Assembly: GCA_016208745.1 (NCBI GenBank)
Contig: JACQXN010000006.1
Location: 67-64,066 of the forward strand
Reading direction: 5' to 3'
DNA length: 64,000 nt
Source: Candidatus Portnoybacteria bacterium
GTDB lineage: Bacteria > Patescibacteriota > Minisyncoccia > Portnoybacterales > GWB1-42-6
Shown here: positions 23,919 through 51,138 of the stretch, in pieces
Layout of the letters: each line of letters starts with the position of its first letter
Position numbering within the stretch: the stretch's first letter is position 1
The notes under the pieces: model-generated
The model's database searches: none
What the model was told of the DNA's origin: nothing
The model's input: only the letters and a program-made list of their open reading frames with translations
Program-made: the position numbers and the translations under genes

Positions 23919-24056
23919 AAATGTCTAATTTCTAATTATTCTAATTTCTAAGCAAATCCCAAATTTTTAAATATCCAATAATAAAAAGTAGTATTTTGTC
24001 ATTGGAAATTGGAAATTCATTAGATTAATTAGACTAATTAGGTCAATTAGAAATTT
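23919..24056. repeat. 138-bp AT-rich palindromic element (arms AATTTCTAATT...ACCTAATT / AATTAGGT..AATTAGAAATT) inserted at a 23S domain I helix tip
   Basis: Same family as 24154-24247, 50463-50597 and 51001-51138; complementary flanking rRNA sequences close the helix. Confidence 0.6.
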
Positions 24057-24153
24057 CGCACGAAACGCAGTGAAGTGCGGTAGATGGGTTTAGGCTCTTC
24101 CCTTTTCGCTCGCCGCTACTGGGGGAATGAGCGGTCTCGCAATCGCTCGCCGC

Positions 24154-24247
24154 AATGTCTAATTTCTAATCCCTAATTTATCTAATCCAGTCCCGCAGGG
24201 CGGGACATTTTTAGAATAATTAGGTTAATTACGAATAATTAGAAATT
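24154..24247. repeat. 94-bp AT-rich palindromic element of the same family inside 23S, with a central gtcccgc/gcgggac hairpin
   Basis: Arm sequences shared with the other family members. The flanking rRNA motif GCGGCGAGCGA is duplicated across the element, consistent with a closing helix. Confidence 0.6.
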
Positions 24248-24327
24248 GCGCGTATCGAACGATAGTGAGATCGCCTTATTTTCTTTTCCTCCGCTTACTA
24301 GAATGTTTTACTTCAGCGGGTTAACTC

Positions 24328-24618
24328 CTGCTCAGATTTTTGGAGGGGATCATATTTATAGACGATCCCCCTAATAAATTAACATGCCCTAAGGCCTGTA
24401 TCATTGTATGTGACCAGGGCCACAAATGTCTCGCCAACGATAGCCAATGCGGTCGAAAGAACTTCGGGTTGTTCTTTTTTTTCCCATTGATTAATCTCTT
24501 CTCTTAATCGTACCATTGCACCCAAAGCATTCTCTGGCGGAACTCTTTCCACAACAAATTCCATTACCATACTATGTCCTCCTTTTTCAGAATTATTTAC
24601 TCCAAAAATCTGAGCAGG
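24328..24618 (-). other. intervening sequence of about 290 nt near the 23S 5' end, closed by a 19-bp inverted repeat (CCTGCTCAGATTTTTGGAG / CTCCAAAAATCTGAGCAGG) and containing a protein-coding ORF
   Basis: The insertion lies between conserved 23S segments (..GGGGAAACCC.. and ..GAAGTAAAACAT..), and the stem is a perfect 19 bp. Confidence 0.65.
24379..24570 (-). CDS. 63-aa hypothetical protein encoded inside the 23S intervening sequence (MVMEFVVERVPPENALGAMVRLREEINQWEKKEQPEVLSTALAIVGETFVALVTYNDTGLRAC)
   Basis: AAAGGAGG lies 7 nt upstream of the ATG. The longer track ORF 24379..24669 would read through conserved rRNA. Confidence 0.5.
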   Translation of the reverse strand: MVMEFVVERVPPENALGAMVRLREEINQWEKKEQPEVLSTALAIVGETFVALVTYNDTGLRAC

Positions 24619-24948
24619 TATACCGATTTTATCGGTATGGGTTTCCCCATTCGGATATCCCCGGATCAAAGCTTGCTAGACAGCTCCCCGAGGCTTAACG
24701 CAGTCACGCCACGTCCTTCATCGCCTCAATATCCCTAGGCATCCACCATACACCCTTAGCCATCTGTCTAAATTTTTGCCCCCAAGCCAAAGCTTGGGAT
24801 TGCCACGCTAAGCGCGGCCTAGATGACTAATAATTAAGTAACCATTAACGTTATCTGATTCTCTAATTTCACCCCGTCCCACAATACATTTGTGGCGGGG
24901 TTCTTTTATACCTGCTATATTCAATTTTCAAGTTGCTATCATTTTTCA

Positions 24949-24988
24949 TCAGCGGAAAAATGATAAATTTTTATCATTTTTCCGCTGA
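24949..24988. repeat. 40-bp perfect palindrome (tcagcggaaaaatgataa-attt-ttatcatttttccgctga) in the rRNA operon leader or upstream region
   Basis: 18-bp arms. Confidence 0.5.
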
Positions 24989-25179
24989 CACCCATAAGCC
25001 TTATGAGTCCTATCGGTCCTATTTTGAAATAAAAATCCGCTTCTTCTGGAAGCGGCCCGCTAAAACCAAAACGCAAACAAGACGTCTTTTATCCGCTTCC
25101 TTTATTTAATCTGGTGATATTTAACTTCATATTTTGGTTTAACATTCTTCTATCACGCCTAGCGTGATCTTCGTCCCTC

Positions 25180-25207
25180 ATTTTATCAAATTGACAGAGC
25201 CTGTCAA
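25180..25207 (-). promoter_or_regulatory. candidate sigma70-type promoter for the 23S-5S operon (TTGACA-N16-TAAAAT on the minus strand) within a TTGACAG/CTGTCAA palindrome
   Basis: -35 at 25202-25207 and -10 at 25180-25185, both on the minus strand. Confidence 0.5.
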
Positions 25208-25236
25208 TAGTCAAGGTGCACGAAATATTCACGCCT

Positions 25237-25266
25237 TGACTTTAACGGCGTTAATATATTAAAATA
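25237..25266 (+). promoter_or_regulatory. candidate promoter TTGACT-N18-TAAAAT for 25301..25630
   Basis: -35 and -10 hexamers located 35-65 nt upstream of the AAAGGAGG ribosome-binding site and ATG. Confidence 0.45.
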
Positions 25267-25300
25267 TTGAATTAAATAAAGTTCTTTAAAGGAGGTAAAA

Positions 25301-25630
25301 ATGCCGGTATTTATATACGAACCAGACGCATTTAAAAAAATCTGCCTGGTTGAAGGACCGGATTATGCCGAAAACCAAAAAGATTTCGGAATCTGCGGCT
25401 TCGATGCTTTTAAGAAACGGTGGGAAGAAGCAATAAAACAAAATCCGGCCTTAAAAGAAACCGAGGGTTGCTACGCCATATCCGTTGACTCCAACAGCGC
25501 AATTTATGGCTGGGGAGGATACAACCGCTACATTGTTTTCTATTCCGGCGAGATCCTTTTTTCAAGTAATCACGCGATAAACGAAGCCGCCCTGAAACTA
25601 GCGAAAGAAGTCGGCTTTCGCACCATATAA
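25301..25630 (+). CDS. hypothetical protein (109 aa)
   Basis: Strong ribosome-binding site AAAGGAGG 8 nt before the ATG. Confidence 0.6.
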   Translation: MPVFIYEPDAFKKICLVEGPDYAENQKDFGICGFDAFKKRWEEAIKQNPALKETEGCYAISVDSNSAIYGWGGYNRYIVFYSGEILFSSNHAINEAALKLAKEVGFRTI

Positions 25631-25693
25631 ATGCTCGCAAAAAACTCCTTAGAATTAATTAGGGAGTTTTTTTAATCCAATCAGTCAAGATTT

Positions 25694-26362
25694 TTAACTG
25701 TGGTTGCCATTACTTTTATCATTATTAACAAACAACATAATCTTTTTCTCAAAAAGATTCTCGGCGATTTTACTTAAGATTGCAAAAACGACCACAATGA
25801 GCGCTAGTCCTATAGTTAAAAGCTTAACATCATGCTTTATCTTTTCCAGATTATGGGCGAAAAAATATCCCAAAGACATAAATAAGGTGGTCCAAACGAT
25901 GGAAGCAATAAGTTGGTATTTTATAAATTGCCTGAAATTGAATTTGATTGCGCCGGCCGCGATTAAACTAATCCGATTCAAACCATACATAAACTTAGAT
26001 ATAAAAATGAAAAGTCCGCCATTTTTTTGCATCATCTGCTCAATTCTTTTAAATCTGACCGATGTCATAAAAAACCAACGACCATATTTGGAAATAAATT
26101 TATCCCCGTATTTTATGCCAACCAAAAACCAAAGATAGTCGCCAGCCAAAACTCCTAAAAATGAGATGAAAAATGAATCCCAGAAATCAAGATAATCCAG
26201 CCGAACCAACGCTCCGATTATTAATAGAGTCTCCTCGCCCAAAAAAATCAATAACAGAAAAATTAATCCGTAAATCAGGAAATGTGGGTAAGCTAAAAAA
26301 TTATATAGTAGCCTCGAGAGCATAAAAAGAAACCTCGAAACGAATACACCCGAATGACTCAA
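25694..26362 (-). CDS. DedA/VTT-domain family membrane protein (start may be the internal Met MLSRLLY)
   Basis: Multi-TM with DedA-like conserved segments GDYLWFLVG and GRWFF..RF. Confidence 0.6.
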   Translation of the reverse strand: MSHSGVFVSRFLFMLSRLLYNFLAYPHFLIYGLIFLLLIFLGEETLLIIGALVRLDYLDFWDSFFISFLGVLAGDYLWFLVGIKYGDKFISKYGRWFFMTSVRFKRIEQMMQKNGGLFIFISKFMYGLNRISLIAAGAIKFNFRQFIKYQLIASIVWTTLFMSLGYFFAHNLEKIKHDVKLLTIGLALIVVVFAILSKIAENLFEKKIMLFVNNDKSNGNHS

Positions 26363-26413
26363 ATATGATTCGAGTAATTCGGGTGTAATTCAATCCTGAT
26401 TCAAAATCTTAAA

Positions 26414-26575
26414 TTAGTCCTTTTTCTTGCCCATTATTCTAAACATCTTTGTGCCGCATTCTGGGCAGATTCCGGTCATTGCCCGACGTTCAACTCCGCC
26501 TTTGCCTTTCATGGCAACTTCTTTGGCGTCCTTCATTTCTCTTTTGGCTTTACATTTAACGCAATATGCTTCCAT
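26414..26575 (-). CDS. 53-aa zinc-ribbon protein (MEAYCVKCKAKREMKDAKEVAMKGKGGVERRAMTGICPECGTKMFRIMGKKKD), absent from the ORF track
   Basis: CxxC..CPEC motifs on the minus strand; the track's plus-strand ORF 26427..26612 is antisense to it. Confidence 0.5.
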   Translation of the reverse strand: MEAYCVKCKAKREMKDAKEVAMKGKGGVERRAMTGICPECGTKMFRIMGKKKD

Positions 26576-26729
26576 AAATTTTTGTTTTATTATAAAAAAT
26601 TATTCCTCCTGATCCTCTTCTGATACAAGAGGATAAAATCGACCTTAGAGATTTCCTTATATTAAATTTTGCCTAACTCTTATATTATACAGCTAAACTG
26701 GTTAATATGCAACTTATTTCTCCACATAT

Positions 26730-27113
26730 TCAGATTCTACCCATTTTTCGGCGTTTTTCCGCTTCCCTTATTTCTCTTTCCGAAGAACCGAAATGATGAG
26801 CAATTTCATGCCAAACCGTATTTTTTACAACCTCTTTAATGCTTTCGGGAGAATCAGTATAGGCTTCTATTGGTTTTCTAAAAATCGTGATTTTGTCCGG
26901 TAGGGCTGAATAAAAGGTTCCTCGCTTTATCTGCGGCACTCCCTCATAAAGCCCGAATAAAAAATCATCTTTCCTTAATTGAAGCTTCTTTTTCTGCTCT
27001 GGCGTTGGCTCATCATCAATAACAATCGCCACATTTTTCAATTTTGCCAAAAACTCTTTTGGAATCTGGGCAATTCCTTCTTCAACTAGTTTTTCAAATT
27101 CATTCATTTCCAT
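26730..27113 (-). CDS. zincin-like metallopeptidase (DUF1025-type, HExxH)
   Basis: WHEIAHHFG motif in a ~127-aa protein. Confidence 0.65.
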   Translation of the reverse strand: MEMNEFEKLVEEGIAQIPKEFLAKLKNVAIVIDDEPTPEQKKKLQLRKDDFLFGLYEGVPQIKRGTFYSALPDKITIFRKPIEAYTDSPESIKEVVKNTVWHEIAHHFGSSEREIREAEKRRKMGRI

Positions 27114-27194
27114 AGATTACGAATAACACAACCTATGTATAAAATCAATGCTTTATCATATTGAACTTGTTTCGGCATCTGATGGGACAAGAAG

Positions 27195-27260
27195 CATCTA
27201 GATTCCGGCTCCCTTCCGCCTTTGGCGGACGGACAAGCAAGGCCGGAATGACAAAATAAA
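27195..27260. repeat. GC-rich hairpin element attccggc..ccgcctttggcgg..gccggaat followed by gacaaaa; related to 1094-1240
   Basis: Shares the ..cgcctt.ggcggacgga.. and ggaatgacaaa segments with the reverse complement of 1094-1130. Confidence 0.4.
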
Positions 27261-27270
27261 ACTTTATTAA

Positions 27271-27633
27271 TCAGACAAGATTCTTCCTTCTGGCTAGAAC
27301 CTCCCAAACTTCTTCGGGAATTGGCGGCGGCTCATGAATAGGGCTTATACCCGGATACCGCCACGTACTGATAATCGTAATTTTCTTTAAACTTTTAACC
27401 TTAGACTTTAAACTTTTAACTTCTTGAAACATTGCCCAGATTTCATACGGATGCTTCTTTGAGCCGGTTTTTTGCATAACCGCTGTGGTGTTAGGCGCGA
27501 CGCCAACCTCTTTTCGGTCGGGGAAACGCAAAACACGCTTTATCCGGCTTTCGGATAAATTATATTGACGGAGCTTATGCCGGCTATGCTGAGTCCAGTA
27601 TAAATCATCTGACTTTGGTAAAGGATTCATCAT
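27271..27633 (-). CDS. hypothetical protein (120 aa)
   Basis: ORF with ATGA start/stop overlap to the upstream gene. Confidence 0.5.
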   Translation of the reverse strand: MMNPLPKSDDLYWTQHSRHKLRQYNLSESRIKRVLRFPDRKEVGVAPNTTAVMQKTGSKKHPYEIWAMFQEVKSLKSKVKSLKKITIISTWRYPGISPIHEPPPIPEEVWEVLARRKNLV

Positions 27634-28058
27634 TAAGCATTCTTATTCTTTGACTCTTTTTTTATAACTATCCAGTGATAAAGATATAAAGGCAGACCAA
27701 CCAAAATCATCGCTAAATTAAACGAAGCATCTCTTTGCCTTCTGGAGGTTACTGGATCAACATTGCTTCTTTGCTCTTTCCATTGATTATATGAAACCAG
27801 CCATTGTTGGATGTTAGCTTTTTCTGATTCACTTAAAGTGGTTTGCGCGCCAGTGCTTAAGTCTTGAAGTTTCTCAACCGCAATAGGCGCCGAAAACGGC
27901 TCTTTATACATAACTCTTTCTTCGTCTTCTGCTTTGGTAAAAACAAAAGCTTTAAGTCCCATATCAATAAACCTGATGCCACCGATTGTCAAAAGCACCA
28001 AGCCCAAAAGGGCGAAAGTATAAAGATAAAATGTTCTGATTAATGAATGTTTGTCCAT
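27633..28058 (-). CDS. hypothetical membrane protein (two TM helices)
   Basis: ORF with hydrophobic N- and C-terminal helices. Confidence 0.55.
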   Translation of the reverse strand: MDKHSLIRTFYLYTFALLGLVLLTIGGIRFIDMGLKAFVFTKAEDEERVMYKEPFSAPIAVEKLQDLSTGAQTTLSESEKANIQQWLVSYNQWKEQRSNVDPVTSRRQRDASFNLAMILVGLPLYLYHWIVIKKESKNKNA

Positions 28059-28065
28059 GATATTT

Positions 28066-28170
28066 AACTTCTTAGTTATTCCCTCCTCCCCTCAAATGAG
28101 GGGAGGATTAAGGTGGGGTGATAAAATTGATTTTCAACACCTCCTCTTTAATTCTCCTCCTCAACTGAGG
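28066..28170 (-). promoter_or_regulatory. two similar stem-loops whose stems are CCUCC / GGAGG (CCTCCCCTC-aaat-GAGGGGAGG and CTCCTCCTC-aact-GAGGAGGAG) in the leader of 27633..28058
   Basis: GC-rich hairpins in an AT-rich genome; the stems consist of Shine-Dalgarno and anti-Shine-Dalgarno-like sequence. Confidence 0.4.
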
Positions 28171-28226
28171 AGGAGAGGATAAATAAAAAAAATTTATTAA
28201 CTCGAAACAATTAATAGAGTAGTAAT

Positions 28227-28445
28227 TTATTTAATCTCCACTATCTTATTCCTACTAGATGCCCCTGAAGTAATTCTTATCCTTGAGCGCGCGACAGAAA
28301 AATATTGCGCCAATGCTTTAATTATTGCTTCATTGGCTCGACCTTTTTCTGGCGGCTCGCAAACTGCCACCACAAAATGAGTTTCCGATATTTTCTCAAT
28401 AAATTCCTTTCTAGCCCGGGGTTTTGCCTGAACAAATATTTTCAT
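28227..28445 (-). CDS. DUF167/YggU-family protein
   Basis: A 72-aa protein with the pattern ..PEKGRANEAIIKALAQYF.V..S.I.I.SG.SSR.K. Confidence 0.6.
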   Translation of the reverse strand: MKIFVQAKPRARKEFIEKISETHFVVAVCEPPEKGRANEAIIKALAQYFSVARSRIRITSGASSRNKIVEIK

Positions 28446-28539
28446 CTTATTATGGAGCGCCTTCCTTAATTTTATATTAATTCTACCCCTTCCTATATTC
28501 TGGCGTCAAACAAAAAAATAATAGTAAATTAACATTTGT

Positions 28540-28583
28540 AAATTTGCCAGTTAGTATGCTATAGCATACTAACTGGCAAATTT
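28540..28583. promoter_or_regulatory. 44-bp perfect palindrome with core AGTATGCTATAGCATACT, downstream of 28614..29225
   Basis: Perfect 22-bp arms; the core is shared with 29194-29226. Confidence 0.5.
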
Positions 28584-28613
28584 TTCTTTCTAGTCTTTCG
28601 TTCTAAGTAAAGC

Positions 28614-29225
28614 CTATAAATCAAAAATGTTTTTTAAATACAAATCATTATCTATCTTCTCTATTACGCCATAAAGTATATGGGGTTTTATTTGATAAAA
28701 TTCCGCGATAAAGTTAATTTCGTCTTCGCATTCAAACGGATGCACAAAGACACTTTTCTGTAATTCGTGGAATCCTATCTTTTTTAATCTGAACCTGAAA
28801 GCATCCCGCGCCATTTTTTGTTCCTCCGGAATGTCAAAAATTACAATCCTCCATTTTCTATCCCAAGCCTGCTTCTTAATTCTCATATCTTCTAATTGGT
28901 ATTTTAACGCCTTTGTTTTTCCATTGTCAGCCAAAACCATTGAAATAACGCCATCTCTATCCGTTTTTATATTAACTAACTTTGACCGATATAGTTCTCT
29001 TATATCTTGTTTTATTCTATCTTCTTTTATTTGTTTCCACCCTTTTCCAATTGCTTTTACTATATGAAATTGCCGTTCCGGGGAACGGTTAAGACAAAGA
29101 GCAGCGCCGCCCATCAATATAAGTAAAATTTTCTTTTTGTTGGTATTTAAATCACTCACTTTATTTATTTTTATTATACGCCATATCAATTTTGGAGTAA
29201 ATATGCTATAGCATAGTAACTCCAA
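28614..29225 (-). CDS. protein with a C-terminal Cas2/VapD-like domain (IVIFDIPEEQKMARDAFRFRLKKIGFHELQKSVFV) and an N-terminal possible winged-helix domain; PaaX-like architecture; flanked by related palindromes
   Basis: The C-terminal pattern resembles the Cas2/VapD fold signature (hh.YDh...RR.kh.k.L..yG.R.Q.SVF). Palindromes sit at the start and 30 nt after the stop. Confidence 0.4.
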   Translation of the reverse strand: MELLCYSIFTPKLIWRIIKINKVSDLNTNKKKILLILMGGAALCLNRSPERQFHIVKAIGKGWKQIKEDRIKQDIRELYRSKLVNIKTDRDGVISMVLADNGKTKALKYQLEDMRIKKQAWDRKWRIVIFDIPEEQKMARDAFRFRLKKIGFHELQKSVFVHPFECEDEINFIAEFYQIKPHILYGVIEKIDNDLYLKNIFDL

Positions 29226-29226
29226 A
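29194..29226. promoter_or_regulatory. palindrome ttggagtaaATATGCTATAGCATAgtaactccaa overlapping the start of 28614..29225; candidate operator
   Basis: Core TATGCTATAGCATA is shared with 28540-28583. Confidence 0.45.
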
Positions 29227-29290
29227 AAACACAGAAGAGACTCTCATTGTATGTTATATTTGATCTAATCATGGGTAATATTGTAAATAC

Positions 29291-29319
29291 TTGACACGTG
29301 GTTTAGTTTTTTATATCAT
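29291..29319 (+). promoter_or_regulatory. candidate promoter TTGACA-N17-TATCAT for the GNAT gene
   Basis: Canonical hexamers about 50 nt upstream of AAGGAGGG and the ATG at 29369. Confidence 0.5.
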
Positions 29320-29368
29320 AATTCATCGCACAAATCTGTCATTTAATAATCAAATAAGGAGGGATATT

Positions 29369-29920
29369 ATGCTGGTAGGAAAAAGCGTTACTTTGAGACC
29401 GTTGGGAATAGAAGATATCGACTTTTTTCTTAAATGGTTCAACAATCCAGAAATAACAAAGTTTCTACTTATGTATCTGCCGATGACGAAGCTATCCGAA
29501 GAAAAATGGCTGCGGGAAGTGGCAAAAAAGCAAGAACCAGTTTTCACAATACTTGTAAATACTCCGAGCGAAAGACCCCCAATCGGCGCTTGTGGACTCC
29601 ACAAGATTGATCAAAAAGACAGAAGGGCTGAATTCGGAATCGTACTCGGAGAAAAGAATGCATGGGGCTGTGGTTTCGCCCGAGAGGCAGGCGAGCTTTT
29701 GATAAGCTATGGTTTCAATTCGCTTAATCTTCATAAGATAGAATCAGCTTACATAGCAACAAACATTAGAAGCATGAGACTTCATAACAAATTAGGGTTT
29801 TTGGAGGAAGGAAGGAAAAGGAACCACACATTTAAAGAGGGCCAATATCGCGATATGATTATTTTCGGCCTTCTTCGGGAAGAGTGGGAACAAGCGAAAG
29901 AAAGAAAAAAGAAAGAATAA
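29369..29920 (+). CDS. GNAT-family N-acetyltransferase (RimJ/RimL-like)
   Basis: Acetyl-CoA binding region ..GLHKIDQKDRRAEFGIVLGEKNAWGCGFAREA..; ribosome-binding site AAGGAGGG. The track start at 29291 has no ribosome-binding site. Confidence 0.8.
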   Translation: MLVGKSVTLRPLGIEDIDFFLKWFNNPEITKFLLMYLPMTKLSEEKWLREVAKKQEPVFTILVNTPSERPPIGACGLHKIDQKDRRAEFGIVLGEKNAWGCGFAREAGELLISYGFNSLNLHKIESAYIATNIRSMRLHNKLGFLEEGRKRNHTFKEGQYRDMIIFGLLREEWEQAKERKKKE

Positions 29921-30010
29921 ACAGACAGACCAGCGCTACAATGTGTCGGTTTTTTAAACCAAAAGAGACGTCTACGCGTCTCTTTTAAAATTGCATTTGA
30001 AACTCTTGCC

Positions 30011-31069
30011 TTACAGCGCCACAATCTCTTCCCAAGGCAACCCCTCTTTGCCAAAATGTCCATAAGCAGCGGTTTGGCGGTAAATCGGCCGGCGGAGATT
30101 CAATCGTTCAATAATCGCCTGCGGCCGGAAATCAAAATTCTTATTCACTATTTCATCAATGCTCTCCCCTTTTTCATTAATCGCCTCAACCATTAAAGGT
30201 TCAACGCGGCCGATGGCATAAGCCACTGAAACTAAACATTTTTTAGCTAGGCCATTAGCCACAATATTTTTGGCGGCAAAACGAGCCATATAAGCGGCTG
30301 ATCGATCAACTTTTGTCGGATCTTTCCCAGAAAAAGCGCCGCCGCCATGCGGAATTAAACCGCCATAAGTATCAACCATAATCTTTCTGCCGGTTAAGCC
30401 GGTGTCAGCCTCAAACCCGCCCTGCACGAATTTGCCGGTTGGATTAACTAATATTTCGGCGCCATTGTAATCTTCTTCGTCAAAAGCCGATTTAATTACT
30501 TTTTCAATAATTTCTCTTTTTATATCATCTTGCGAAACCGAATCGCTATGCTGACAGCTAACTAGAATTTTTTCTGTGCCGTGGCTGTTAATAGTTACCT
30601 GCGATTTACCATCTGGAAAAAGCCAGGTGGCTTGGCCACTTCTCCTTAATTTTTCTAAACCTTGCGCCAGTTTATGCGCCATAACAACTCCTTTGGGCAA
30701 AAATTGAGAAGTTTCATCTGTCGCATAACCATACATAATGCCTTGATCTCCGGCGCCACCCGTATCAACTCCCTGCGCAATGTCGGGCGATTGCTGGACA
30801 ACATTAGTAATAACTTTTAACTCGTTCTGATGGCCGATATCGCGATAAACCTGTCGGCCAAGATTGGCAAAATCAACTTGCGCGTTAGTTGTCAGCTCGC
30901 CGCAAATAACTAATATCCCGTGTCCGCCAAAACTTTCAATGGCAACTCTGCTTTTTGGGTCTTGCCTTAAACATTCGTCTAAAACAGCATCCGAAATCTG
31001 ATCGCAGATTTTATCCGGATGCCCCGAGGTAACGCTTTCAACTGTATACATCTTTGTGCTGTATGTCAT
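30011..31069 (-). CDS. metK: S-adenosylmethionine synthetase
   Basis: GHPDKICDQISDA, GAGDQGIMYGYA and GGGAFSGKDPTKVDRS motifs; the true start may be the internal MYTVESV. Confidence 0.95.
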   Translation of the reverse strand: MTYSTKMYTVESVTSGHPDKICDQISDAVLDECLRQDPKSRVAIESFGGHGILVICGELTTNAQVDFANLGRQVYRDIGHQNELKVITNVVQQSPDIAQGVDTGGAGDQGIMYGYATDETSQFLPKGVVMAHKLAQGLEKLRRSGQATWLFPDGKSQVTINSHGTEKILVSCQHSDSVSQDDIKREIIEKVIKSAFDEEDYNGAEILVNPTGKFVQGGFEADTGLTGRKIMVDTYGGLIPHGGGAFSGKDPTKVDRSAAYMARFAAKNIVANGLAKKCLVSVAYAIGRVEPLMVEAINEKGESIDEIVNKNFDFRPQAIIERLNLRRPIYRQTAAYGHFGKEGLPWEEIVAL

Positions 31070-31154
31070 ACTGGGTAGTAGAAATTTGACTATGATTTAA
31101 ATTCGGAACGCCGAATTTAAATCATAAGGTCTTTTTAGTTTTCTACAATTTAAA

Positions 31155-31292
31155 AAATCTTTCCACGCGGAAAGATTTCTCTAAAATTATCTTTCCCCCG
31201 TGGGGCTAGAGTTGGCACCTCTCCTTCAATTATTTGAAGAAGGTTGTCGGCAGGTCATAGGGCTAGTTCCCTCGCTACACTCTGTAATAATT
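31155..31292 (-). promoter_or_regulatory. SAM-I (S-box) riboswitch with an intrinsic terminator, in the metK leader
   Basis: Minus-strand sequence ..TTATTACAGAG..GCGAGGGAACTAGCCCTATGACCTGCCGACAACC..GGTGCCAACTCTAGCC..AGATAA matches the S-box consensus. It is followed by the hairpin aaatctttcc-gcgt-ggaaagattt and a T-run. Confidence 0.7.
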
Positions 31293-31299
31293 ATTTTAT

Positions 31300-43797: not shown

Positions 43798-43802
43798 AAT
43801 TT

Positions 43803-44219
43803 TTATTTAGCAGCTCTACTATAGAATATATAACATAGCGACGGGACAAGCATCATTTGAAGTATTGGGGTTAATCCCACGTTAAGCAAAGGGGCAATCG
43901 GCATCATGGAATTATATCCCCACCTGCCAGTCGTAAGAGAATATTTTTCAACAAGAACCGCTATAATAAGACCCGTAATAATTAATGATACAAGCCTTTT
44001 TGTATTATATCTATCATTAAAAAATTTATTTCCAAAGATAAGGCGGTTTATCATAAAGATAATAGCAATTATTACTATATCTCCCAAGCTAGCCATAAGA
44101 TGTACTTTTATTAACCCGCTTGTTCCGGAATAATGTGGTGTATACAAAAAGGCTTGAGAAATTTCCCAGACAAAATTTAAAATAAAAGTTATTATTAAAA
44201 AGATTGCTATTCTTTTCAT
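43803..44219 (-). CDS. hypothetical membrane protein (138 aa)
   Basis: Four predicted TM helices. Confidence 0.5.
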   Translation of the reverse strand: MKRIAIFLIITFILNFVWEISQAFLYTPHYSGTSGLIKVHLMASLGDIVIIAIIFMINRLIFGNKFFNDRYNTKRLVSLIITGLIIAVLVEKYSLTTGRWGYNSMMPIAPLLNVGLTPILQMMLVPSLCYIFYSRAAK

Positions 44220-44426
44220 ATTTATATCATACTAAAAAATCCCAACCCTTACGAGGGGAAAAAAATCAAGCCTTTATGGCTTGAAAAATTAAGGCTCCGA
44301 ATGTGAGCAATGTTAGGAACATTTTCGAGAGACAAAATAAGTACATTCTTATATACCTGATTCGAGAAGTTTCGCTAACTCATAAACTTACCCCGCATCG
44401 CTACTCACTATTGTTGCAGCAGTTTA

Positions 44427-44672
44427 TTAAAAGTCATCTACTCCTGCCTTATAGAGGACAAGCCATAATATCAACGCGACAAACATGATAACCAAGTGAG
44501 CAAAAGCAATCCCGTAAAAAACCCGTCGCCTCTTAAAAAAAGAGTAGGCCATGACCGGTATTGATATATAAAATACGGTCTTATTATAAGGAAGGAAGAT
44601 TACCATGGCTAAGAAGGTAATAAAAAAACTAAGTAAAAATTCTTTTTTTGCTGAGTTGTGCTGTAAAGTCAT
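44427..44672 (-). CDS. small membrane protein (81 aa)
   Basis: ORF with two TM helices; a terminator hairpin lies at 44262-44280. Confidence 0.35.
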   Translation of the reverse strand: MTLQHNSAKKEFLLSFFITFLAMVIFLPYNKTVFYISIPVMAYSFFKRRRVFYGIAFAHLVIMFVALILWLVLYKAGVDDF

Positions 44673-44718
44673 CTAGTTGTAGAGGGTATTAAATATTTTA
44701 TAATATGCTAAGCGATAT

Positions 44719-45165
44719 TTATTTGCATGCCCCAAGCTCATTGCCTTGACCATCTATCCAATATTGTCCCCTAGCTTCACATTGTTGTTTTAATTCTTGT
44801 CTTATCTGTTCTGGGCTTTTAGAGAAGTTATAACCCCTTAATGGTTTATCAATTATGAAAAAAGTTATTAGCAAAAATATAATGGCGATCACTTTTCCTG
44901 TTTTTGAATAAAAAAATATGATTGCAATTAGGTAAAAAAATAGTAAATCAGGTATTATAAAGTGGTATTTCAAAAATCCAGAGGCTAAAAAAGGCAAGCT
45001 GAGAGCGAAAAACTTAAAAGGGAAACCGACCCCCTCTCTTATTCCAAGCTTAAAATCTACTACTTGAAAAAGAATAAAAAAAGAGAAGCACAAAATAATT
45101 TTACCTAAGGTTGGCCTTAATAGTTTTTTTAGTTCCATATATAAGCGTAAGAAAGGATGCCTCAA
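44719..45165 (-). CDS. hypothetical membrane protein (148 aa)
   Basis: ORF with hydrophobic helices. Confidence 0.4.
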   Translation of the reverse strand: MRHPFLRLYMELKKLLRPTLGKIILCFSFFILFQVVDFKLGIREGVGFPFKFFALSLPFLASGFLKYHFIIPDLLFFYLIAIIFFYSKTGKVIAIIFLLITFFIIDKPLRGYNFSKSPEQIRQELKQQCEARGQYWIDGQGNELGACK

Positions 45166-45176
45166 AAAAGACTTCT

Positions 45177-45250
45177 TGGCTGCGGGGGAAGGAATCGGAC
45201 CTTCATACCGGCTTCCAAAGAGCCGTGTCCTACCATTAGACGACCCCGCA
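45177..45250 (-). tRNA. tRNA-Gln (UUG) with a U1:A72 pair and encoded CCA
   Basis: Manual cloverleaf: acceptor TGCGGGG/CCCCGCA, D-stem GTCT/GGAC, anticodon stem CGGCT/AGCCG with loop CTTTGGA, and a T-arm with a non-canonical TCCGATT loop. Confidence 0.75.
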
Positions 45251-45976
45251 ATTTTTATAAATACCTTCTATCCATCCTGCTATTTTTCTGTTTAGGTTTG
45301 TACTTTTAGCAATAGTAATTCTTAATAATCCGCAGTAATTTTCACCAACATTTTTTCTTTTTGTATTTATTTTATTTTTCTTCCAGACAATTTGCTTAAA
45401 TCGAGATATCGGAAAATCTGTTATTTTTGACCAATACTTCTGGATTTCTCGTTCTCTTTTAACAGCAGTCTCGTGCAAATAAATTGAGAAAGTGATATCG
45501 CTAGGCAAAACCTGACAACATTTCTGGAGCCATCCTAAAAATATTTTTATCATCCGCGGGTCTGAATTGCCAAATTGAACTCTTGTCCCTCTTTGATGCT
45601 CTTTGGATCCCTCGGCCCAATAAAGAGCTACTCCGATAAGCCAAAGATCTCTTTTGCTTATTGCCCTTATTTCTCTTTTCGCCGCGGCTTTTATCTCTTC
45701 CGTGATTTTAATACGTTTTTCCCTACACGTCTGTTGCGCCTTAAATTGTGCTTGTCTCCGTTTTTCGGTTAGACGCTGTTTTTGTTTTTTAGCCAGACTA
45801 ACGTCTTTTAGCCACACCGACAATGTTGATTTCGCAACTGGCAACAATTTCAAAATCTCACTATATGATAAACCTCGTTTTCTATATCTGATAGCTAAAT
45901 TTTTTCTTGTTCCTTTTTTATCATAAACCACAGTTATTATCTTCTTTATTATATAACTGTGGTTCGGATACATCAA
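45236..45976 (-). CDS. HTH-containing hypothetical protein; its 3' end overlaps the tRNA-Gln 5' end
   Basis: HTH-like RGLSYSEILKLLPVAKSTLSVWLKDV; possible LAGLIDADG-like segment LIGVALYWAEGSK; 4-nt overlap with dnaX. Confidence 0.4.
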   Translation of the reverse strand: MMYPNHSYIIKKIITVVYDKKGTRKNLAIRYRKRGLSYSEILKLLPVAKSTLSVWLKDVSLAKKQKQRLTEKRRQAQFKAQQTCREKRIKITEEIKAAAKREIRAISKRDLWLIGVALYWAEGSKEHQRGTRVQFGNSDPRMIKIFLGWLQKCCQVLPSDITFSIYLHETAVKREREIQKYWSKITDFPISRFKQIVWKKNKINTKRKNVGENYCGLLRITIAKSTNLNRKIAGWIEGIYKNCGVV

Positions 45977-47112
45977 GTCCGTTTGTTCTCTAGTATCTCC
46001 ACAATCACCAATTCTAGCGGCAGTTGCGGAAATACGGCAGATTTGATCTGGTTCTCGGCGTCAATAAATAATCTAACTAGCTTAATTAAATCCGTAGCGG
46101 AAAATTTTTGCCCCTGCTCTAAAATATTTTTTAGTTGCTCTTGCGTAAATTCTGGCGCCACGAGATTTTTAAATTCGTTTATCTGTGATTCAGCAGCGGT
46201 TTTTAAAATCATCATTTTCCGGAAATAATTTATCAAAGATTTGGCAAATTGCGATAAATCATATCCTTCTTCGGCGATTTTATTAATAAAGACAATTGCT
46301 CCGGCCGCGTCTTTTTTGACAATAAAATCAACCATTGAGACTACTGCCGAAATATCAACTGTTCCCAAAATCGTTTGCACTTCTTCTAACGTTATTTCTT
46401 TATCCTCCATCGCCATCACTTGCCCTAAAAGTGATTCGGCATCTCTAACTCCGCCATCAGCGTTTAAAGCAATCAACTCCAGCGCCGCCTGGTCAATTTT
46501 TATTTTCTCTTCTTTGGCAATAAATTTTAAACGTTCAACTAAATCCGGCAAAATCAATTTATGAAAATCAAATCTTTGGCAGCGCGAAATAATGGTTTGC
46601 GGCATTTTATGGATCTCGGTTGTGGCTAAAATAAATATGGCATGCTTTGGCGGCTCTTCCAAGGTTTTTAATAACGCATTAAAAGCCTCGCGCGTTAACA
46701 TATGCACTTCGTCAATAATGAAAACTTTGTATTTTAACCGCGTTGGGCTAAATTTTATTCCTTCGCGCAATTCCCTTATTTCATCTATGCCGCGATTGGA
46801 GGCGGCATCAATTTCTATTAAATCAAGGCTTCTGCCCGCGTTTATTTCTTCACAATTGTCGCATTTATTACAGGGCTCATAGCTATGTCCAGAGCTTGTC
46901 GAAGGACAATTAACTGCCTTCGCTAAAATTCTGGCCACAGTTGTTTTGCCGGTTCCTCGCGGGCCGGTGAAAAGATAAGCGTGCGCGGTTTTGCCCAAAA
47001 CAATCGCATTAGTTAAGGTTTTAATAATGTGCGACTGATTAACAACCTCCCCAAAGCTTCTGGGGCGATATTTGCGATATAAAACGAGATTTTCCATAGG
47101 GAGTAATCGCAA
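45973..47112 (-). CDS. dnaX: DNA polymerase III subunit gamma/tau (short form)
   Basis: Walker A GPRGTGKTT, Zn module CNKCDNC, SRC-like box and Walker B IIDEVHML. Confidence 0.92.
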   Translation of the reverse strand: MRLLPMENLVLYRKYRPRSFGEVVNQSHIIKTLTNAIVLGKTAHAYLFTGPRGTGKTTVARILAKAVNCPSTSSGHSYEPCNKCDNCEEINAGRSLDLIEIDAASNRGIDEIRELREGIKFSPTRLKYKVFIIDEVHMLTREAFNALLKTLEEPPKHAIFILATTEIHKMPQTIISRCQRFDFHKLILPDLVERLKFIAKEEKIKIDQAALELIALNADGGVRDAESLLGQVMAMEDKEITLEEVQTILGTVDISAVVSMVDFIVKKDAAGAIVFINKIAEEGYDLSQFAKSLINYFRKMMILKTAAESQINEFKNLVAPEFTQEQLKNILEQGQKFSATDLIKLVRLFIDAENQIKSAVFPQLPLELVIVEILENKRT

Positions 47113-47205
47113 ATATACGAATCTGGAATAATATACCGATATACGAATTCGTATAGATCTGTATATTCGTATATTTGGGATAATTCGTATATTCGTGATT
47201 ACTCC
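47101..47205. promoter_or_regulatory. iteron-like array of TATACGAAT / ATTCGTATA repeats (at least four, including the palindrome TATACGAATTCGTATA) overlapping the dnaX start
   Basis: Repeats read directly from the sequence; the outer arms gagtaatcg..cgtgattactc are inverted. Confidence 0.45.
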
Positions 47206-47269
47206 AATATTAACTTAAAACCAAAAAAGGCGCAATTTATATCGCGCCTCTTATCATCCCACAAAATAG

Positions 47270-47968
47270 CTAAACAATCTTTCTCTGTTCCGGCTCAGAC
47301 GGCGCGATGATAGACGGTTCGGGCTTAGCGGCGTCTTTTTGGTCAAAAACAATAAATTTATAACCAATAAAGTTCCAAAGAAGCGATAGGGCAGTCGCGG
47401 CTGCTTTAGCAAGATTTGCCCAAATAGCGGGGCTTAAGTCGAAAAACGGATTGATATAAGTTGTAATTAGATAAACCAGCCCGCTGTTTACGCCAAGCCC
47501 GATAAGGCTCACGATCATAAATTGCGTAAATTCCTTACCCACGCTCTCTTTCTGAGCTTGAGATTCGCGAGCCTCTTTAAATGTCCAGAAACGATTCCAA
47601 GTATAGGAATTGGTAATAGCGATCACAAAAGAAATAGCGTTAAATAAAATTATATATTCCCCCTTATAAATGCCGGACTGCCACATCAGAATATTAAGTA
47701 TCTCAAAATCAATGAGAGTATTGAGGCCGCCTACCAAAACATATTTGACGAACTGATAAACAATTTTTATTTTTTTACCAATCAAAAATGCGACATAAAG
47801 CCCGAAAGAACACAAAATCGGCAAAATTATTATTAAAGCCCACAGATAAGGAATCTGCTTTTCTATAAAACCGATTTTAAGCGCAATAATAACCAAAAGG
47901 GCAACTACCAGCCCGATAATTAAACTTGATATAAAATCTCTTTTTTTGAAAGTAATTTCTTGATTCAT
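47270..47968 (-). CDS. GtrA-family membrane protein
   Basis: VGGLNTLIDF..N..SF.....N..WTF repeated motif and four TM helices. Confidence 0.7.
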   Translation of the reverse strand: MNQEITFKKRDFISSLIIGLVVALLVIIALKIGFIEKQIPYLWALIIILPILCSFGLYVAFLIGKKIKIVYQFVKYVLVGGLNTLIDFEILNILMWQSGIYKGEYIILFNAISFVIAITNSYTWNRFWTFKEARESQAQKESVGKEFTQFMIVSLIGLGVNSGLVYLITTYINPFFDLSPAIWANLAKAAATALSLLWNFIGYKFIVFDQKDAAKPEPSIIAPSEPEQRKIV

Positions 47969-47990
47969 AATTGCGTCTTTTTAAAAATTA

Positions 47991-50456
47991 TTAAAGTTTT
48001 TGCGCTATTGTATTAGTATTTGTGACAGCTGACTTGCCACGATTTATTATCTCTTCTTCTACTAAATTTTTATCACGCCCGTATTTTAGACGGGATAATT
48101 GTTTAACGGCCTGAGTTTTTGTCAAGTCGCCCTTTTGAGGCGGATAAATTTGGATATTAAACGGCAGAGAAGTTGCGCCATTAATTAATAGTTTAACATA
48201 CGCGTTATAATTATCAATGTTTATTAAATCATTCTGATTAAAAACCGGCTCAAATTGTTTAACCAAAAATTCGGCATCAGTCGCGCCGACCCGAAAAGAA
48301 ATCATCGAGCCGACATTGCCAAAAACAGAAGACTTTATTTTATCGGCTAGCTGACCGATAAACTGATGCGCAATAATTAAATTTAAGCGATATTTTCTGG
48401 CTTCAGATAAAATAGTGGCAATGCTCTCTGTGGCAAAATTTTGAAATTCATCAATATAAAGATAGAAGTCCCGCCGCTCTTCTTCGGCAATATCAATCCG
48501 CGAAAAAGCGGCCATTAAAAGCTTGCCAACATTTATCAATCCCAAAAGACTACTATTTATATCGCCTAGCCTCCCTTTTGACAAATTAACTAAAAGTATT
48601 TTTTTGTTATCAATAATCTCACGATAATTAATGCTGCTTTTTGCCTGACCGATAATTGGCCGCATATAATCGTTGGCGATAAAAACATTGAATTTGGAAG
48701 TAATATAAGGAACCATATTTTGCAGGGAAGCTTCCCCGCCTGCTTTTTCTGCTTCTTTTTCCCAAAAATCTTTGACTACCGGATTTTTACATTTAACCAA
48801 TAGCCTTAAACGAAATTCCTTGTCCGCTAAAACTTTTGGCACCTCCATTAATGTTACCTGCTCTTGCGGATCATCCATCAAAAGCAAAAGGGCATTTCGG
48901 GTATATTGCTCAAACATCGGGCCGCCGGTTGTCCGCAAATCATAAAGTTTGTCAAAAATATTTATTAATTCATTGACAATAAAAGTTTTTTGCTCGGGGA
49001 ATCGGCCGTCATATTCAAGCATATTTAAACCAACCGGCCGTTCTAAATCCGCCGGGTCAATCAAAATTATATCTTCCGCTCTATTATCTGGCGTTAAGCT
49101 TAAAATCTTTTCCACTAAATCGCCGTGCGGGTCAATTATACCAACGCCTTTGCCGACCAAAATATCCTGCATTGCTAAATTACAAATTAAATTGCTTTTG
49201 CCAGTTCCTGTTTGACCAATTAAATAAAGATGGCGCCGCCTGTCATCTTCCGCTAATTTGACTTCTAGCTCAGCCCCCCTGAAAATATTTTTCCCTAGAA
49301 TCAATCCTTCTTTTGATAAATTGGTTGGTGCAGCTGCTTGTTTGGCTTTTAGAAATTTAACCTGCGGCGCGGAAAGGTTGGTCTGCGGCAGATGAAAAAG
49401 ACTGGTTAGCTCTTCGGTGTTTAAAAGCATTCTTTGGCGCTGGCTAAAAAACCGAAAAGAAAAATTATAAATAAGTTTTTTTAAAGCGCGGCCGGATAAT
49501 CTTTTAGCTTTGATGCTATTAAAATTCGGATGGTTAAACTGGGAAAATGCGCCTTCAAGATGCGACAAAATCTCGTCAGCCTCAATCTTCGTTGGGGCAG
49601 AAGCCAATAATCTAACATTGACATCGAAACCAATTTTGCCGGCCTTTTCTTCAAGCGCTTTTATCTGTTCCTGCTGCATTGGGGTTAAAGTCGGGAGCGG
49701 CGGAGTTGGTTGCTGAGGTTTTTTAGAGGTTAGTTCTAACCCTTTTGACGCCGCCTTTACTAATGTTGTTGCTTTTTTAGCCTGCTCAAAAGTTCTATTT
49801 TTTTGCATTTCTCTGGCAATTTTTAAAGAGCGCTTTCGCCAATTAGAAGAAGTGGATTTAAAAACAATCTGAATCGCAGCGCCTTCTCCTATCTCATCTA
49901 ATTTACTGAAAGAATTAACAATTTCTGATAACGGATCGCTTTCCAACGATTTGTATGTTTTAAAAGGGAGATAATAATTTTTCGTTAAAGAAAGGAAGGA
50001 ACCAGAAGAGGCGCCTTGTGGATTAAAAATATTGTAGTCGCGGATACGATCAATTTGAGCTTCCGGGAAAAAACCATGAATTTGTTTTTCAAGCATATTT
50101 TGCAATCTTTTTGGCGCGGCCAAATAAAAAGAAATTTCCTGGCCAAAATGCGGCACCGCCATTTCAAAAACAACAGTCAAGGGCCCATAGACAAAAGCGT
50201 CTTTGGCTGATTGTTTAAATCCGGTTAAGGCCGAGTAAAGCTGCTCCATCACAGCGATCACTTCTTTTTCGCTTTTTTGGGGCGATCCTTCCTGTTTTTG
50301 GGCGCGAGGCAATGAAATCAAAAACAAGCCCATATTTAGGGCTCTAAAAACGCTTCCCTTGCTTCTTGCCGCTTCATAAACAAGCCATAGACCAAGCAAA
50401 GCCGCGCAAAAAGCTAAACCAATCGTTATAGGGACTAGAATTAGATTGAAATCCAT
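47991..50456 (-). CDS. VirB4/TraC-like (type IV secretion/conjugation family) P-loop ATPase with an N-terminal TM helix
   Basis: Walker A LIGQTGTGKS at mid-protein, GIIDPHGDL, Walker B YLYIDEFQNF, C-terminal AHQ..QL motif; 821 aa. Confidence 0.5.
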   Translation of the reverse strand: MDFNLILVPITIGLAFCAALLGLWLVYEAARSKGSVFRALNMGLFLISLPRAQKQEGSPQKSEKEVIAVMEQLYSALTGFKQSAKDAFVYGPLTVVFEMAVPHFGQEISFYLAAPKRLQNMLEKQIHGFFPEAQIDRIRDYNIFNPQGASSGSFLSLTKNYYLPFKTYKSLESDPLSEIVNSFSKLDEIGEGAAIQIVFKSTSSNWRKRSLKIAREMQKNRTFEQAKKATTLVKAASKGLELTSKKPQQPTPPLPTLTPMQQEQIKALEEKAGKIGFDVNVRLLASAPTKIEADEILSHLEGAFSQFNHPNFNSIKAKRLSGRALKKLIYNFSFRFFSQRQRMLLNTEELTSLFHLPQTNLSAPQVKFLKAKQAAAPTNLSKEGLILGKNIFRGAELEVKLAEDDRRRHLYLIGQTGTGKSNLICNLAMQDILVGKGVGIIDPHGDLVEKILSLTPDNRAEDIILIDPADLERPVGLNMLEYDGRFPEQKTFIVNELINIFDKLYDLRTTGGPMFEQYTRNALLLLMDDPQEQVTLMEVPKVLADKEFRLRLLVKCKNPVVKDFWEKEAEKAGGEASLQNMVPYITSKFNVFIANDYMRPIIGQAKSSINYREIIDNKKILLVNLSKGRLGDINSSLLGLINVGKLLMAAFSRIDIAEEERRDFYLYIDEFQNFATESIATILSEARKYRLNLIIAHQFIGQLADKIKSSVFGNVGSMISFRVGATDAEFLVKQFEPVFNQNDLINIDNYNAYVKLLINGATSLPFNIQIYPPQKGDLTKTQAVKQLSRLKYGRDKNLVEEEIINRGKSAVTNTNTIAQKL

Positions 50457-50462
50457 CTGAAA

Positions 50463-50597
50463 AATTTCTAATTGACCTAATTTCTAATTGATTTAATCAA
50501 ATCCCAATGATTCAATAATTAATGCTAAATTAATTCCGGGATTTGGGTATTGGGAATTTTTTAAAATAATTAGGTTAATTAGAATAATTAGAAATTT
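50463..50597. repeat. 135-bp AT-rich palindromic element (AATTTCTAATTGACCTAAT.. / ..ATTAGGTTAATTAGAATAATTAGAAATT), same family as the 23S insertions
   Basis: Terminal inverted repeats and internal ATCCCAA..TTGGGTATTGGGAATT segments are shared with 23919-24056 and 51001-51138. Confidence 0.6.
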
Positions 50598-50598
50598 C

Positions 50599-51009
50599 CT
50601 AGCTCTCTTTCAGTTTTCCTTTTTCAACCAGCTTCTGATAAAGCTCATCTATTAAGGTGTCGTGGAATTTATCAATAAGATACGGGTCTTCCGAAGCTTT
50701 GGCCGCTTGAACTGCTTTATCTATGCCCTGCTCAAAAGCCATATCAACTAGAATTTTTAACTGCCGGTCTTTGCTTGCATCGCTTAAATCGTCGCTAGCC
50801 GCAGCTTGCGGCGACGGTCCGGGAACAGGCAACACAGAAGGCTCGATTTTTTGCTGAGCTGGAGCTTCTTCTGTTTTTTCTTTTTCTACTTCTGGAACCA
50901 AAAGGGTCTCTGGCAAAACAGACCTTTCAATTTTTGGCTCTGCGCCCTTTACATTTTCAGTTGGTTCGCGATAAGGATCAGGCATTCTTTGAAAATATCT
51001 AATTTCCAA
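50599..51009 (-). CDS. acidic hypothetical protein (136 aa), exactly bounded by two palindromic elements
   Basis: ORF only. Confidence 0.4.
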   Translation of the reverse strand: MEIRYFQRMPDPYREPTENVKGAEPKIERSVLPETLLVPEVEKEKTEEAPAQQKIEPSVLPVPGPSPQAAASDDLSDASKDRQLKILVDMAFEQGIDKAVQAAKASEDPYLIDKFHDTLIDELYQKLVEKGKLKES

Positions 51010-51138
51010 TTTCTAATTTCTGATAAAGATCCCAATGACTAATGTCAAAAAATTCAGGCATTTAAAAATTAGATATTTATTGGATATTGGATATTGGAAA
51101 TTATTTAGGTCAATTAGAAATTAGGTTAATTAGAAATT
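51001..51138. repeat. 138-bp AT-rich palindromic element of the same family
   Basis: Arms aatttccaatttctaatttc.. / ..ggtcaattagaaattaggttaattagaaatt. Confidence 0.6.

Follow-up and report, generated by a model that had tools for sequence, protein, structure and literature searches.

Intervening sequences (IVS), which RNase III excises from the 23S rRNA without re-ligation so that the rRNA is fragmented, are known from Salmonella, Leptospira, Campylobacter and other bacteria, where they occupy helices 9, 25 and 45. Here we describe a family of AT-rich hairpin-forming repeats that occurs within a 23S rRNA gene as well as between protein genes of Candidatus Portnoybacteria bacterium, a member of the Patescibacteria or Candidate Phyla Radiation (CPR). 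The stretch analysed, hereafter the window, comprises 64,000 nucleotides of contig JACQXN010000006.1 and carries four copies (c1 to c4), two in the 23S gene and two on either side of a small open reading frame (ORF) upstream of an ATPase gene. Like the IVS cut out by RNase III, the rRNA copies are extra AT-rich stem-loops without an ORF, which replace helix tips and occur sporadically among relatives, and the 23S gene of the window carries inserts at the classical helix 25 (H25) and helix 45 (H45) sites. They differ from such IVS in that c1 and c2 lie in hairpins of domain I (E. coli ~271-296 and ~225-232, respectively) and in that the same family occupies protein-gene spacers.

A survey of insertions in CPR rRNA genes classified introns and homing endonucleases and left the short ORF-less insertions as 'uncharacterized', probably IVS processed by RNase III, with no mention of repeats, palindromes, hairpins or copies outside rRNA (Tsurumaki et al. 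2024, PMC11270868). Our copies resemble these short insertions in that they come from the same organisms, remain below 200-250 bp and have neither an intron fold nor an ORF; a 23S gene of Saccharibacteria (locus L092) likewise has a family copy. CPR bacteria are notable for insertions in most of their rRNA genes. Those of the intron type are understood, and part of the short ORF-less class now has a sequence identity and a genome-wide context.

With the repetitive extragenic palindromic sequences and their hairpin-forming doublets (REP/REPIN), which are mobilised by Y1/HUH enzymes of the REP-associated tyrosine transposase (RAYT) type, the family shares an extragenic position, a hairpin of ~100 nt, multiple copies, the absence of target duplication and lineage-specific dialects. 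Unlike REP/REPIN, however, whose unit is an imperfect palindrome of 20-40 nt with a conserved tetranucleotide head and forms inverted doublets, it has no GTAG-type head, its arms are arrays of AATTAG words (7/9-nt steps) and TTGG words (7-nt steps) rather than two inverted REPs, and its grammar is common to phylum-level groups, whereas REPs vary from one species to the next. Miniature inverted-repeat transposable elements (MITEs, e.g. Correia of Neisseria, RUP and ERIC) and the Rickettsia palindromic elements (RPE), the latter of which also enter RNA genes, are similarly small and non-autonomous, possess terminal inverted repeats and are co-transcribed with their neighbours. By contrast with MITEs, no target-site duplication is seen in our family and no parent insertion sequence is known; by contrast with RPE, copies are never found in frame inside proteins, and 2 of 113 overlap an ORF. 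Repeats built as unit arrays are also known, namely the heptamer arrays of cyanobacterial short tandemly repeated repetitive (STRR) sequences in stem-loops of a tRNA-Leu intron and the double-hairpin elements of Allomyces mtDNA, both of which occupy variable stem-loops of structured RNAs and spacers. The palindromes of the Lobosphaera incisa mitochondrion (LIMP repeats; PMC4524435) resemble our family in that their stems are arrays of short units, with unequal unit numbers between the two arms; they differ in host and words and have not been reported in rRNA, and no homology is implied. Full-text literature searches yielded nothing relevant on MITEs of CPR, on palindromic intergenic repeats or on the terminal word of the family. 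With a probability of about 0.58, we interpret the four copies as members of a CPR-wide, non-coding, REP/REPIN/MITE-like selfish hairpin repeat, which is kept only where a protruding hairpin is harmless.

Four related hairpins in the window

Copy c1 (23919-24056) is a full-length AT-rich modular hairpin in the 23S gene, at hairpin 274-295 of the large subunit (LSU) rRNA model (E. coli ~271-296), while c2 (24154-24247), a shortened member with outer AATTAG arms only, is located at hairpin 225-232 of the same model. Copy c3 (50463-50597) fills the gap from the small acidic ORF, which stops at 50599-50601, to the ATPase gene, which begins with the ATG at 50454-50456; it lies 2 nt from the stop codon of the former and 6 nt from the start of the latter. 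Copy c4 (50994-51138) occupies the spacer between a DUF5663 gene and the small ORF, with the DUF5663 stop codon (51130-51132) inside its terminal unit. An earlier note on this DNA, which proposed these four as copies of one palindromic element with common termini, had placed c1, c2 and c3 correctly, and only the start of c4 had to be moved, to 50994.

That these elements, which have the termini AATTTCTAATT ... AATTAGAAATT and range in length from 94 to 145 bp, form a family is borne out by words confined to them and by an independent profile. Indeed, AATTAGAAATT occurs five times in the 64 kb and every time within c1-c4, c1 and c4 have an 18-mer in common (TTAGGTCAATTAGAAATT), and c2 and c3 a 17-mer (TAGAATAATTAGAAATT). 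A detector looking for two CTAATT words followed by two AATTAG words returned exactly c1-c4 in the window and nothing in 20 shuffles. When an arm profile built solely from copies of other genomes was run on the window, both arms were recovered in c1 (E 5.4e-9 and 1.1e-6), c3 (E 1.6e-8 and 1.2e-7) and c4 (E 1.9e-8 and 7.1e-7), and in c2 with E 0.008 and 0.044 only. The absence of detections in shuffles and E-values down to 5e-9 contradict AT-rich low-complexity similarity without a common origin, a possibility raised in the earlier note, which we regard, together with the reading of the hairpins as intrinsic terminators (see below), as very improbable. Rfam contains no match at the gathering threshold for the elements of the window, and none at E <= 1 for positions 50400-51200.

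Copy c2 is best described as a truncated and marginal family member. It possesses the outer arms and, at its apex, a GC-rich mini-hairpin (GTCCCGC-AGG-GCGGGAC, 24190-24206), but lacks the internal ATCCCAA/TTGG module, which had been attributed to all four copies and is present in c1, c3 and c4. Mini-hairpins of the c2 type (GTCCCGCC-loop-GGCGGGAC) also top AT-rich spacer hairpins in L176, at the junction upstream of the ATPase gene, and are found at the tips of spacer hairpins in L135-L139 and L208, at the second junction; this recurrence at hairpin apices suggests nested or modular elements.

Distribution, word order and fold of the family

Species-representative genomes were searched for both termini at a distance of 90-120 nt. 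This two-terminus pattern returned at least 119 stretches from many Patescibacteria lineages, about ten of the matches being due to chance (coding DNA or unrelated palindromes). The hosts include Saccharibacteria, groups of Microgenomates, many groups of Parcubacteria, Doudnabacteria, Peribacteria and Gracilibacteria; the family is Patescibacteria-wide and not local to one genome. A number of element-bearing metagenome-assembled genomes (MAGs; L017, L018, L020, L024, L034, L067, L074, L076, L078, L079 and others) are labelled as Gammaproteobacteria, Bacteroidales or Bdellovibrionales. The 'Gammaproteobacteria' label of L020 is wrong, as all named homologs of its IF-2 are from Patescibacteria, and so is the 'Bdellovibrionales' label of L067, whose 23S gene scores 649 bits against that of the window and 210 bits against that of E. 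coli; with both checked labels wrong, such record titles have to be considered unreliable. Phages as a vehicle of the family were rejected, the sole match in 2.9 million viral contigs being an unrelated perfect palindrome.

The elements, about 95-145 bp in length, share a layout of outer AATTAG units, an A/T hinge, inner TTGG units and a variable loop, sometimes with a nested GC mini-hairpin. The step between consecutive AATTAG words is 9 nt in 115 cases and 7 nt in 87, and rarely 8 nt; that between TTGG units is 7 nt. The order CTAATT > CCAA > TTGG > AATTAG, which was no part of the two-terminus search pattern, is observed in more than 100 of 123 elements, with CTAATT in the first fifth of the element, CCAA next, TTGG beyond the centre and AATTAG in the last third. 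The number of units per arm is variable and often unequal between the two arms of an element. Stop codons occur in all frames. Copies from the same genome are more alike than copies from different genomes (9-mer Jaccard 0.089 within vs 0.034 between genomes, p 3.5e-10), and the dialects of the hinge are genome-specific. Hairpins of this tandem-unit design come in many word 'flavours', of which the AATTAG family is one; its density is ~10 times higher in the window than in 716 kb of relatives, which, together with the dialects, speaks for proliferation within genomes.

Whole elements fold far better than their shuffles (mean z -6.5). In the helix, conserved word blocks of 6 bp alternate with spacers in which mismatches are frequent. 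A comparison of the transcribed strand with its complement in folding and G-U content revealed no strand difference (36 vs 24 of 61, Wilcoxon p 0.33). Since sense and antisense fold equally well, the AT-rich core bears no RNA-specific signature, and RNA-level selection on this core was rejected.

The occupied sites and their counterparts in relatives

The 23S rRNA gene of the window (19570-24769, minus strand; Rfam LSU_rRNA_bacteria, 2133 bits), which is followed by the 5S gene, is 5200 nt long compared with a model length of 2925 nt. In an alignment with the 23S of E. coli, the extra sequence is distributed over about eight sites, namely those of c1 and c2 and at least six others. The whole insertion at the c1 site (23891-24082, minus strand, 192 nt, delimited by cmscan) comprises c1 on a GC-richer outer stem, here called the adaptor stem, and folds into one long hairpin (dG -75.5), and the insertion at the c2 site (24130-24275, minus strand, 148 nt, delimited likewise) forms a long hairpin with an outer stem of its own (dG -61.5). 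The rRNA copies sit on such an extra GC-rich adaptor stem; the intergenic copies have none. The words of the outer stem at the c1 site (CUUCACUGCGUUUCG / GAGCUCAGCGAUG) resemble those of L127, L131 and L067. In the folds the 23S helix bases beneath both insertions are still paired, which, with their position in hairpin loops of the LSU model, upholds the claim that c1 and c2 reside in 23S hairpins with complementary flanks. The further claim that a duplication of GCGGCGAGCGA spans one insertion does not hold: both copies (24106-24116 and 24143-24153) are on one side of c2, one being conserved rRNA sequence of H13/14 and the other (24143-24153) a part of the GC-rich outer stem. A target-site duplication was rejected for this pair, which the outer stem accounts for.

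Family copies are not restricted to this 23S gene. They were found in the 23S of L067 (c2 site), of L092 from Saccharibacteria (E. coli 1853-1887) and of L090 from Parcubacteria (~2835). With respect to the rRNA, both orientations of the element are represented. The terminus AATGTCTAATTTCTAAT occurs six times in 1.7 Mb, four of these within 23S genes (c1, c2, L090, L092), compared with 2 of 27 occurrences of the generic terminus (Fisher p 0.005).

For the orthologous sites, relatives were fetched through their proteins and hence not selected for the element; loci fetched through the pattern (L005, L067) are treated separately. Eight loci have the synteny 23S, 5S, a 273-aa protein and FtsW, and seven of them include the 5' part of the 23S gene. 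At the c2 site, six of the seven have a hairpin of 31-35 nt; L131 has a hairpin of AGTGAT/ATCACT units and the pattern-fetched L067 a member of the same family as c2. Similarly, five of the seven (L129, L130, L132-134) have a short plain hairpin at the c1 site, where L127 and L131 have hairpins made from other words; of the pattern-fetched loci L005 is plain and L067 has an other-word hairpin. In E. coli, too, both sites are plain short hairpins.

Another AT-rich hairpin of the 23S gene, possibly a diverged relative of the family, was found in the H45 insertion (22541-22650, minus strand; words AAAUUCUAG, UCCCAAAC / UUUGGAA, UUUAGAAUUU), on an outer stem GCUUCGC...GCGGAGCG. To the eye its words resemble those of the family, as do those of a hairpin in the 5S-23S spacer, but with profile E-values of 0.83 and 8.5, respectively, neither is claimed as a member. 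Outer stems with the GCUUCGC...GCGGAGCG core recur in the H45 insert of the window (22505-22684), in L090 (~4125-4299) and in L092 (1913-2088), i.e. at three sites in three lineages, all in rRNA sense, with U-G wobbles and compensatory flanking pairs. This suggests an rRNA-adapted cassette, the outer stem of which would work at the RNA level, possibly as a processing helix; with n=3 it is a lead, and the cases are too few for a conserved stem to be claimed.

The remaining insertions of this 23S gene are of several kinds. An insert of 842 nt (20520-21362), near E. coli 1931-1943, contains an ORF (20585-21139, minus strand) for a single-domain LAGLIDADG_1 endonuclease (E 8.7e-24), which has more than 2700 homologs at E <= 1e-20, and is probably a group I intron of a type common in CPR. 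A perfect 19-bp stem (24327-24345 / 24600-24618) closes a branched insertion of 272 nt in 23S domain I (24336-24607, E. coli ~131-180), which is not a unit-array hairpin. The insertions at H25 (23386-23487), H45, E. coli ~1700-1760 (21673-21912), ~1870 (21416-21589) and ~1405-1596 (22012-22286) are all long hairpins on paired bases, and those at H25 and H45 have AT-rich unit-array cores made from other words.

Downstream of c3 lies a core gene for a HerA/VirB4/TraG-like P-loop ATPase (47991-50456, minus strand), with weak matches to Pfam DUF87, TrwB_AAD_bind and TraG-D_C. Between c3 and c4 is the small acidic ORF (50599-50985, minus strand), with 128 aa from an ATG at 50985, a likelier start than 51009. 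The spacers around it are tightly filled by c3 and c4, as had been stated. The ATPase gene has orthologs in 80 loci, 67 of 67 relatives have the small ORF directly upstream of it and on the same strand, and the genes nearby are housekeeping ones (DnaX, GtrA, a PMT-family glycosyltransferase); this neighbourhood is therefore a conserved core operon and not an island. The conserved synteny and the housekeeping neighbours likewise dispose of the suggestion that the rRNA insertions are linked to a VirB4-adjacent island. Arrays of the tandem interspaced guide RNA (TIGR) type, which consist of tandem units of ~36 nt (edge repeat, spacer A, loop repeat, spacer B) adjoining a Tas gene with a Nop domain, are present in CPR (PMC12045711). 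A TIGR or CRISPR-like array was rejected for our elements, which have a period of 7/9 nt in mirrored arms and ATPase, DUF5663 and PMT genes as neighbours, with no Tas gene.

The 80 ATPase orthologs (53-74% identity) provide 59 distinct junctions between small ORF and ATPase gene, of which 27 are shorter than 25 nt and 27 have 60 nt or more. For eighteen of the 59 (31%, a roughly twofold enrichment) the fold is much more stable than those of their shuffled versions (z <= -4). The AATTAG family is present at this junction in L137, L166 and L177/178, and other filled junctions hold either same-design hairpins of other words, in at least a dozen cases, or GC-rich perfect hairpins. The second junction, equivalent to that of c4, measures 3 nt in L163 and is occupied by other hairpins elsewhere. 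Compared with empty sites, the edges of the elements are abrupt. Short-read assemblies yielded no strain-level empty sites, since their contigs are interrupted by the elements or by the rRNA. For example, the Logan contig SRR12113398_4318 (L123), which encodes an identical DUF5663 protein, ends ~20 nt past the stop codon, within c4, and contigs with the 274-aa protein end in the 5S region.

That a single orthologous site may hold hairpins of many word flavours and one design would be expected if the hairpins had grown in place, by slippage of 7-9 nt units and template switching between arms, convergently in an AT-biased genome. The tandem units of the arms, in variable and often unequal numbers, would suit such growth, as would the finding of neither a duplication nor a transposase and the like construction of the LIMP palindromes of an algal mitochondrion (PMC4524435). 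That identical 17-20-mers, the same two-word order and the same termini turn up at unrelated sites, both within one genome and across more than 100 others, is nevertheless hard to reconcile with it, as are genome-specific dialects shared by dispersed copies and abrupt edges against empty sites, and we consider in-place growth improbable.

Of the 113 family copies, 73 are flanked by co-directional genes, 13 by convergent and 11 by divergent ones; two overlap an ORF call, and the remaining 14, situated at a locus edge, have a gene called on one side only. These proportions (75/13/11%) match the background given by all adjacent gene pairs of these loci (75.8/12.0/12.2%; chi-square p 0.91). The median gap to the flanking ORFs is 15-16 nt, and in several cases the terminal unit, with its TAA or TAG, supplies the stop codon of the neighbour. 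Strongly structured spacers, by the z-score criterion, make up 16% of junctions compared with 2% of coding controls, and 10 of the 51 junctions in the window. A scan of the elements for promoters and terminators gave the same result as shuffles, with no terminator match inside the elements, and as the orientation mix, moreover, equals the background, a promoter or terminator role was rejected. Intrinsic terminators, i.e. GC-rich stems with a U-tract behind them where transcription units end, would explain hairpins in spacers and the frequency of T directly after the right end, where it is the commonest base (42%), but there is no U-tract, eleven copies stand between divergent genes and others lie inside 23S rRNA.

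An unlikely alternative is that of a functional cis-element kept by selection, with the hairpin or the word arrays recognised by a conserved CPR factor; proposed roles include a processing site for RNase III or another enzyme, an mRNA stabiliser, translational coupling between cistrons, and an array of DNA sites to which a nucleoid or uptake protein binds. It gains from the identical grammar across Saccharibacteria, Microgenomates, Parcubacteria, Gracilibacteria, Peribacteria and Doudnabacteria, from the conservation of the words without that of complementarity in the intervening spacers, from the commonness of structured spacers in the lineage and their enrichment at the ATPase junction, and from the three outer stems of rRNA insertions, in which compensatory changes are seen and U-G wobbles fall on the RNA strand. 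Against this, 27 of 59 relatives have a working ATPase junction with a spacer of 0-19 nt and others one with unrelated hairpins, gene orientation has no influence on placement, divergent pairs included, G-U pairs have no strand bias relative to transcription, rRNA copies occur in both orientations, and neither the promoter/terminator scan, which equals shuffles, nor Rfam, without a match at E <= 1, points to such a function.

Origin and persistence of the elements, and further features of the window

Long shared words, dialects, abrupt edges and indifference to orientation are together explained less well by a cis-element or by in-place growth than by a selfish hairpin repeat, in which the copies would be non-autonomous inserted DNA, gained and lost site by site. 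In short intra-operon spacers a copy may persist because the base of the hairpin would rejoin the upstream stop and the downstream start, and in the 23S gene because it would merely extend a helix tip or add a helix at a junction. The 23S copies might be removed by RNase III together with the GC-rich adaptor stem, or tolerated as expansion segments. The family explains part of the short ORF-less (IVS-like) rRNA insertions of CPR. As for movement, an enzyme acting on single strands (HUH/Y1, of the RAYT/IS200-like type), recombination or template switching could be responsible, and the lack of duplications together with the hairpin ends fits single-strand HUH/Y1 transposition. Locus L131 contains a Y1 (HUH) transposase gene of the RAYT/IS200 type (11998-12678, PF01797), which adjoins FtsW by the rRNA operon and represents a candidate type of mobilising enzyme. 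A tblastn search with this Y1_Tnp found no match in the window or the other 1.66 Mb of loci, a weak test given that such genes are single-copy.

Several observations weigh against a selfish repeat. Target-site duplications, which the earlier note had envisaged, are not visible at 112 copies: the direct repeats of 2-8 nt that flank the elements do not exceed the number expected from shuffled pairs, although a duplication of 4 bp could be concealed by the palindromic AATT ends. No transposase gene stands beside any copy examined, and no mobilising gene was found. Near-identical copy pairs, a sign of recent activity, are absent, and the empty sites are those of relatives with about 55-80% identity rather than of strains of the same species. 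The arms of an element pair only marginally better with each other (-26.9 kcal/mol) than with arms swapped between elements (-25.0 kcal/mol, p 0.012), unlike MITEs and REPINs, whose arms are inverted by descent. Finally, selfish repeats do not usually keep the same word grammar across phylum-level lineages, and its persistence here is a hint of constraint or of frequent horizontal transfer. The mobile or MITE-like behaviour proposed earlier can accordingly be retained in part: one homologous family does occur in 23S and in spacers, with empty orthologous sites, but it leaves no target-site duplication.

The constancy of the grammar and the poor mutual fit of the arms would both be in keeping with a dedicated, conserved trans-acting machinery, i.e. 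a CPR-specific protein that binds or propagates the word arrays, or a templated writing of units into hairpin tips. We think this quite unlikely; if true, it would constitute a new element class or a CPR-wide structural or regulatory signal, with one mechanism for rRNA insertions and operon spacers. The family, which also resides in operon spacers of very small and compact genomes, raises the questions whether the 23S rRNA of CPR is fragmented at the copies, what mobilises hairpin repeats in transposase-poor genomes, and why one grammar persists so deeply. On the practical side, the elements break short-read assemblies and inflate the lengths of rRNA genes, so that a family model would help MAG assembly and rRNA annotation.

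The window harbours further hairpins. Two GC-richer, very stable intergenic ones (1096-1245 and 5536-5685; dG -77.6 and -62.7, spacer z -5.7 and -8.3) are made of GCGAGCG / GAGTGA-type words, as in the outer stems of rRNA insertions. Three AT-rich tandem-unit hairpins (19469-19559, 16650-16763 and 47100-47205), with the words ACTAAT/ATTAGT (in the 5S-23S spacer), TACGAAA and ATTCGTATA, have the same design as the AATTAG family and are not significant members of it. Perfect or near-perfect palindromes with a loop of 0-2 nt were found at 28540-28583 (22+22 nt), 57109-57148 (20+20 nt) and 24949-24988 (19+19 nt), the last directly upstream of the 23S gene. An S-adenosylmethionine (SAM) riboswitch of the S box class is located at 31184-31293 on the minus strand, with 51.5 bits, above the gathering score.

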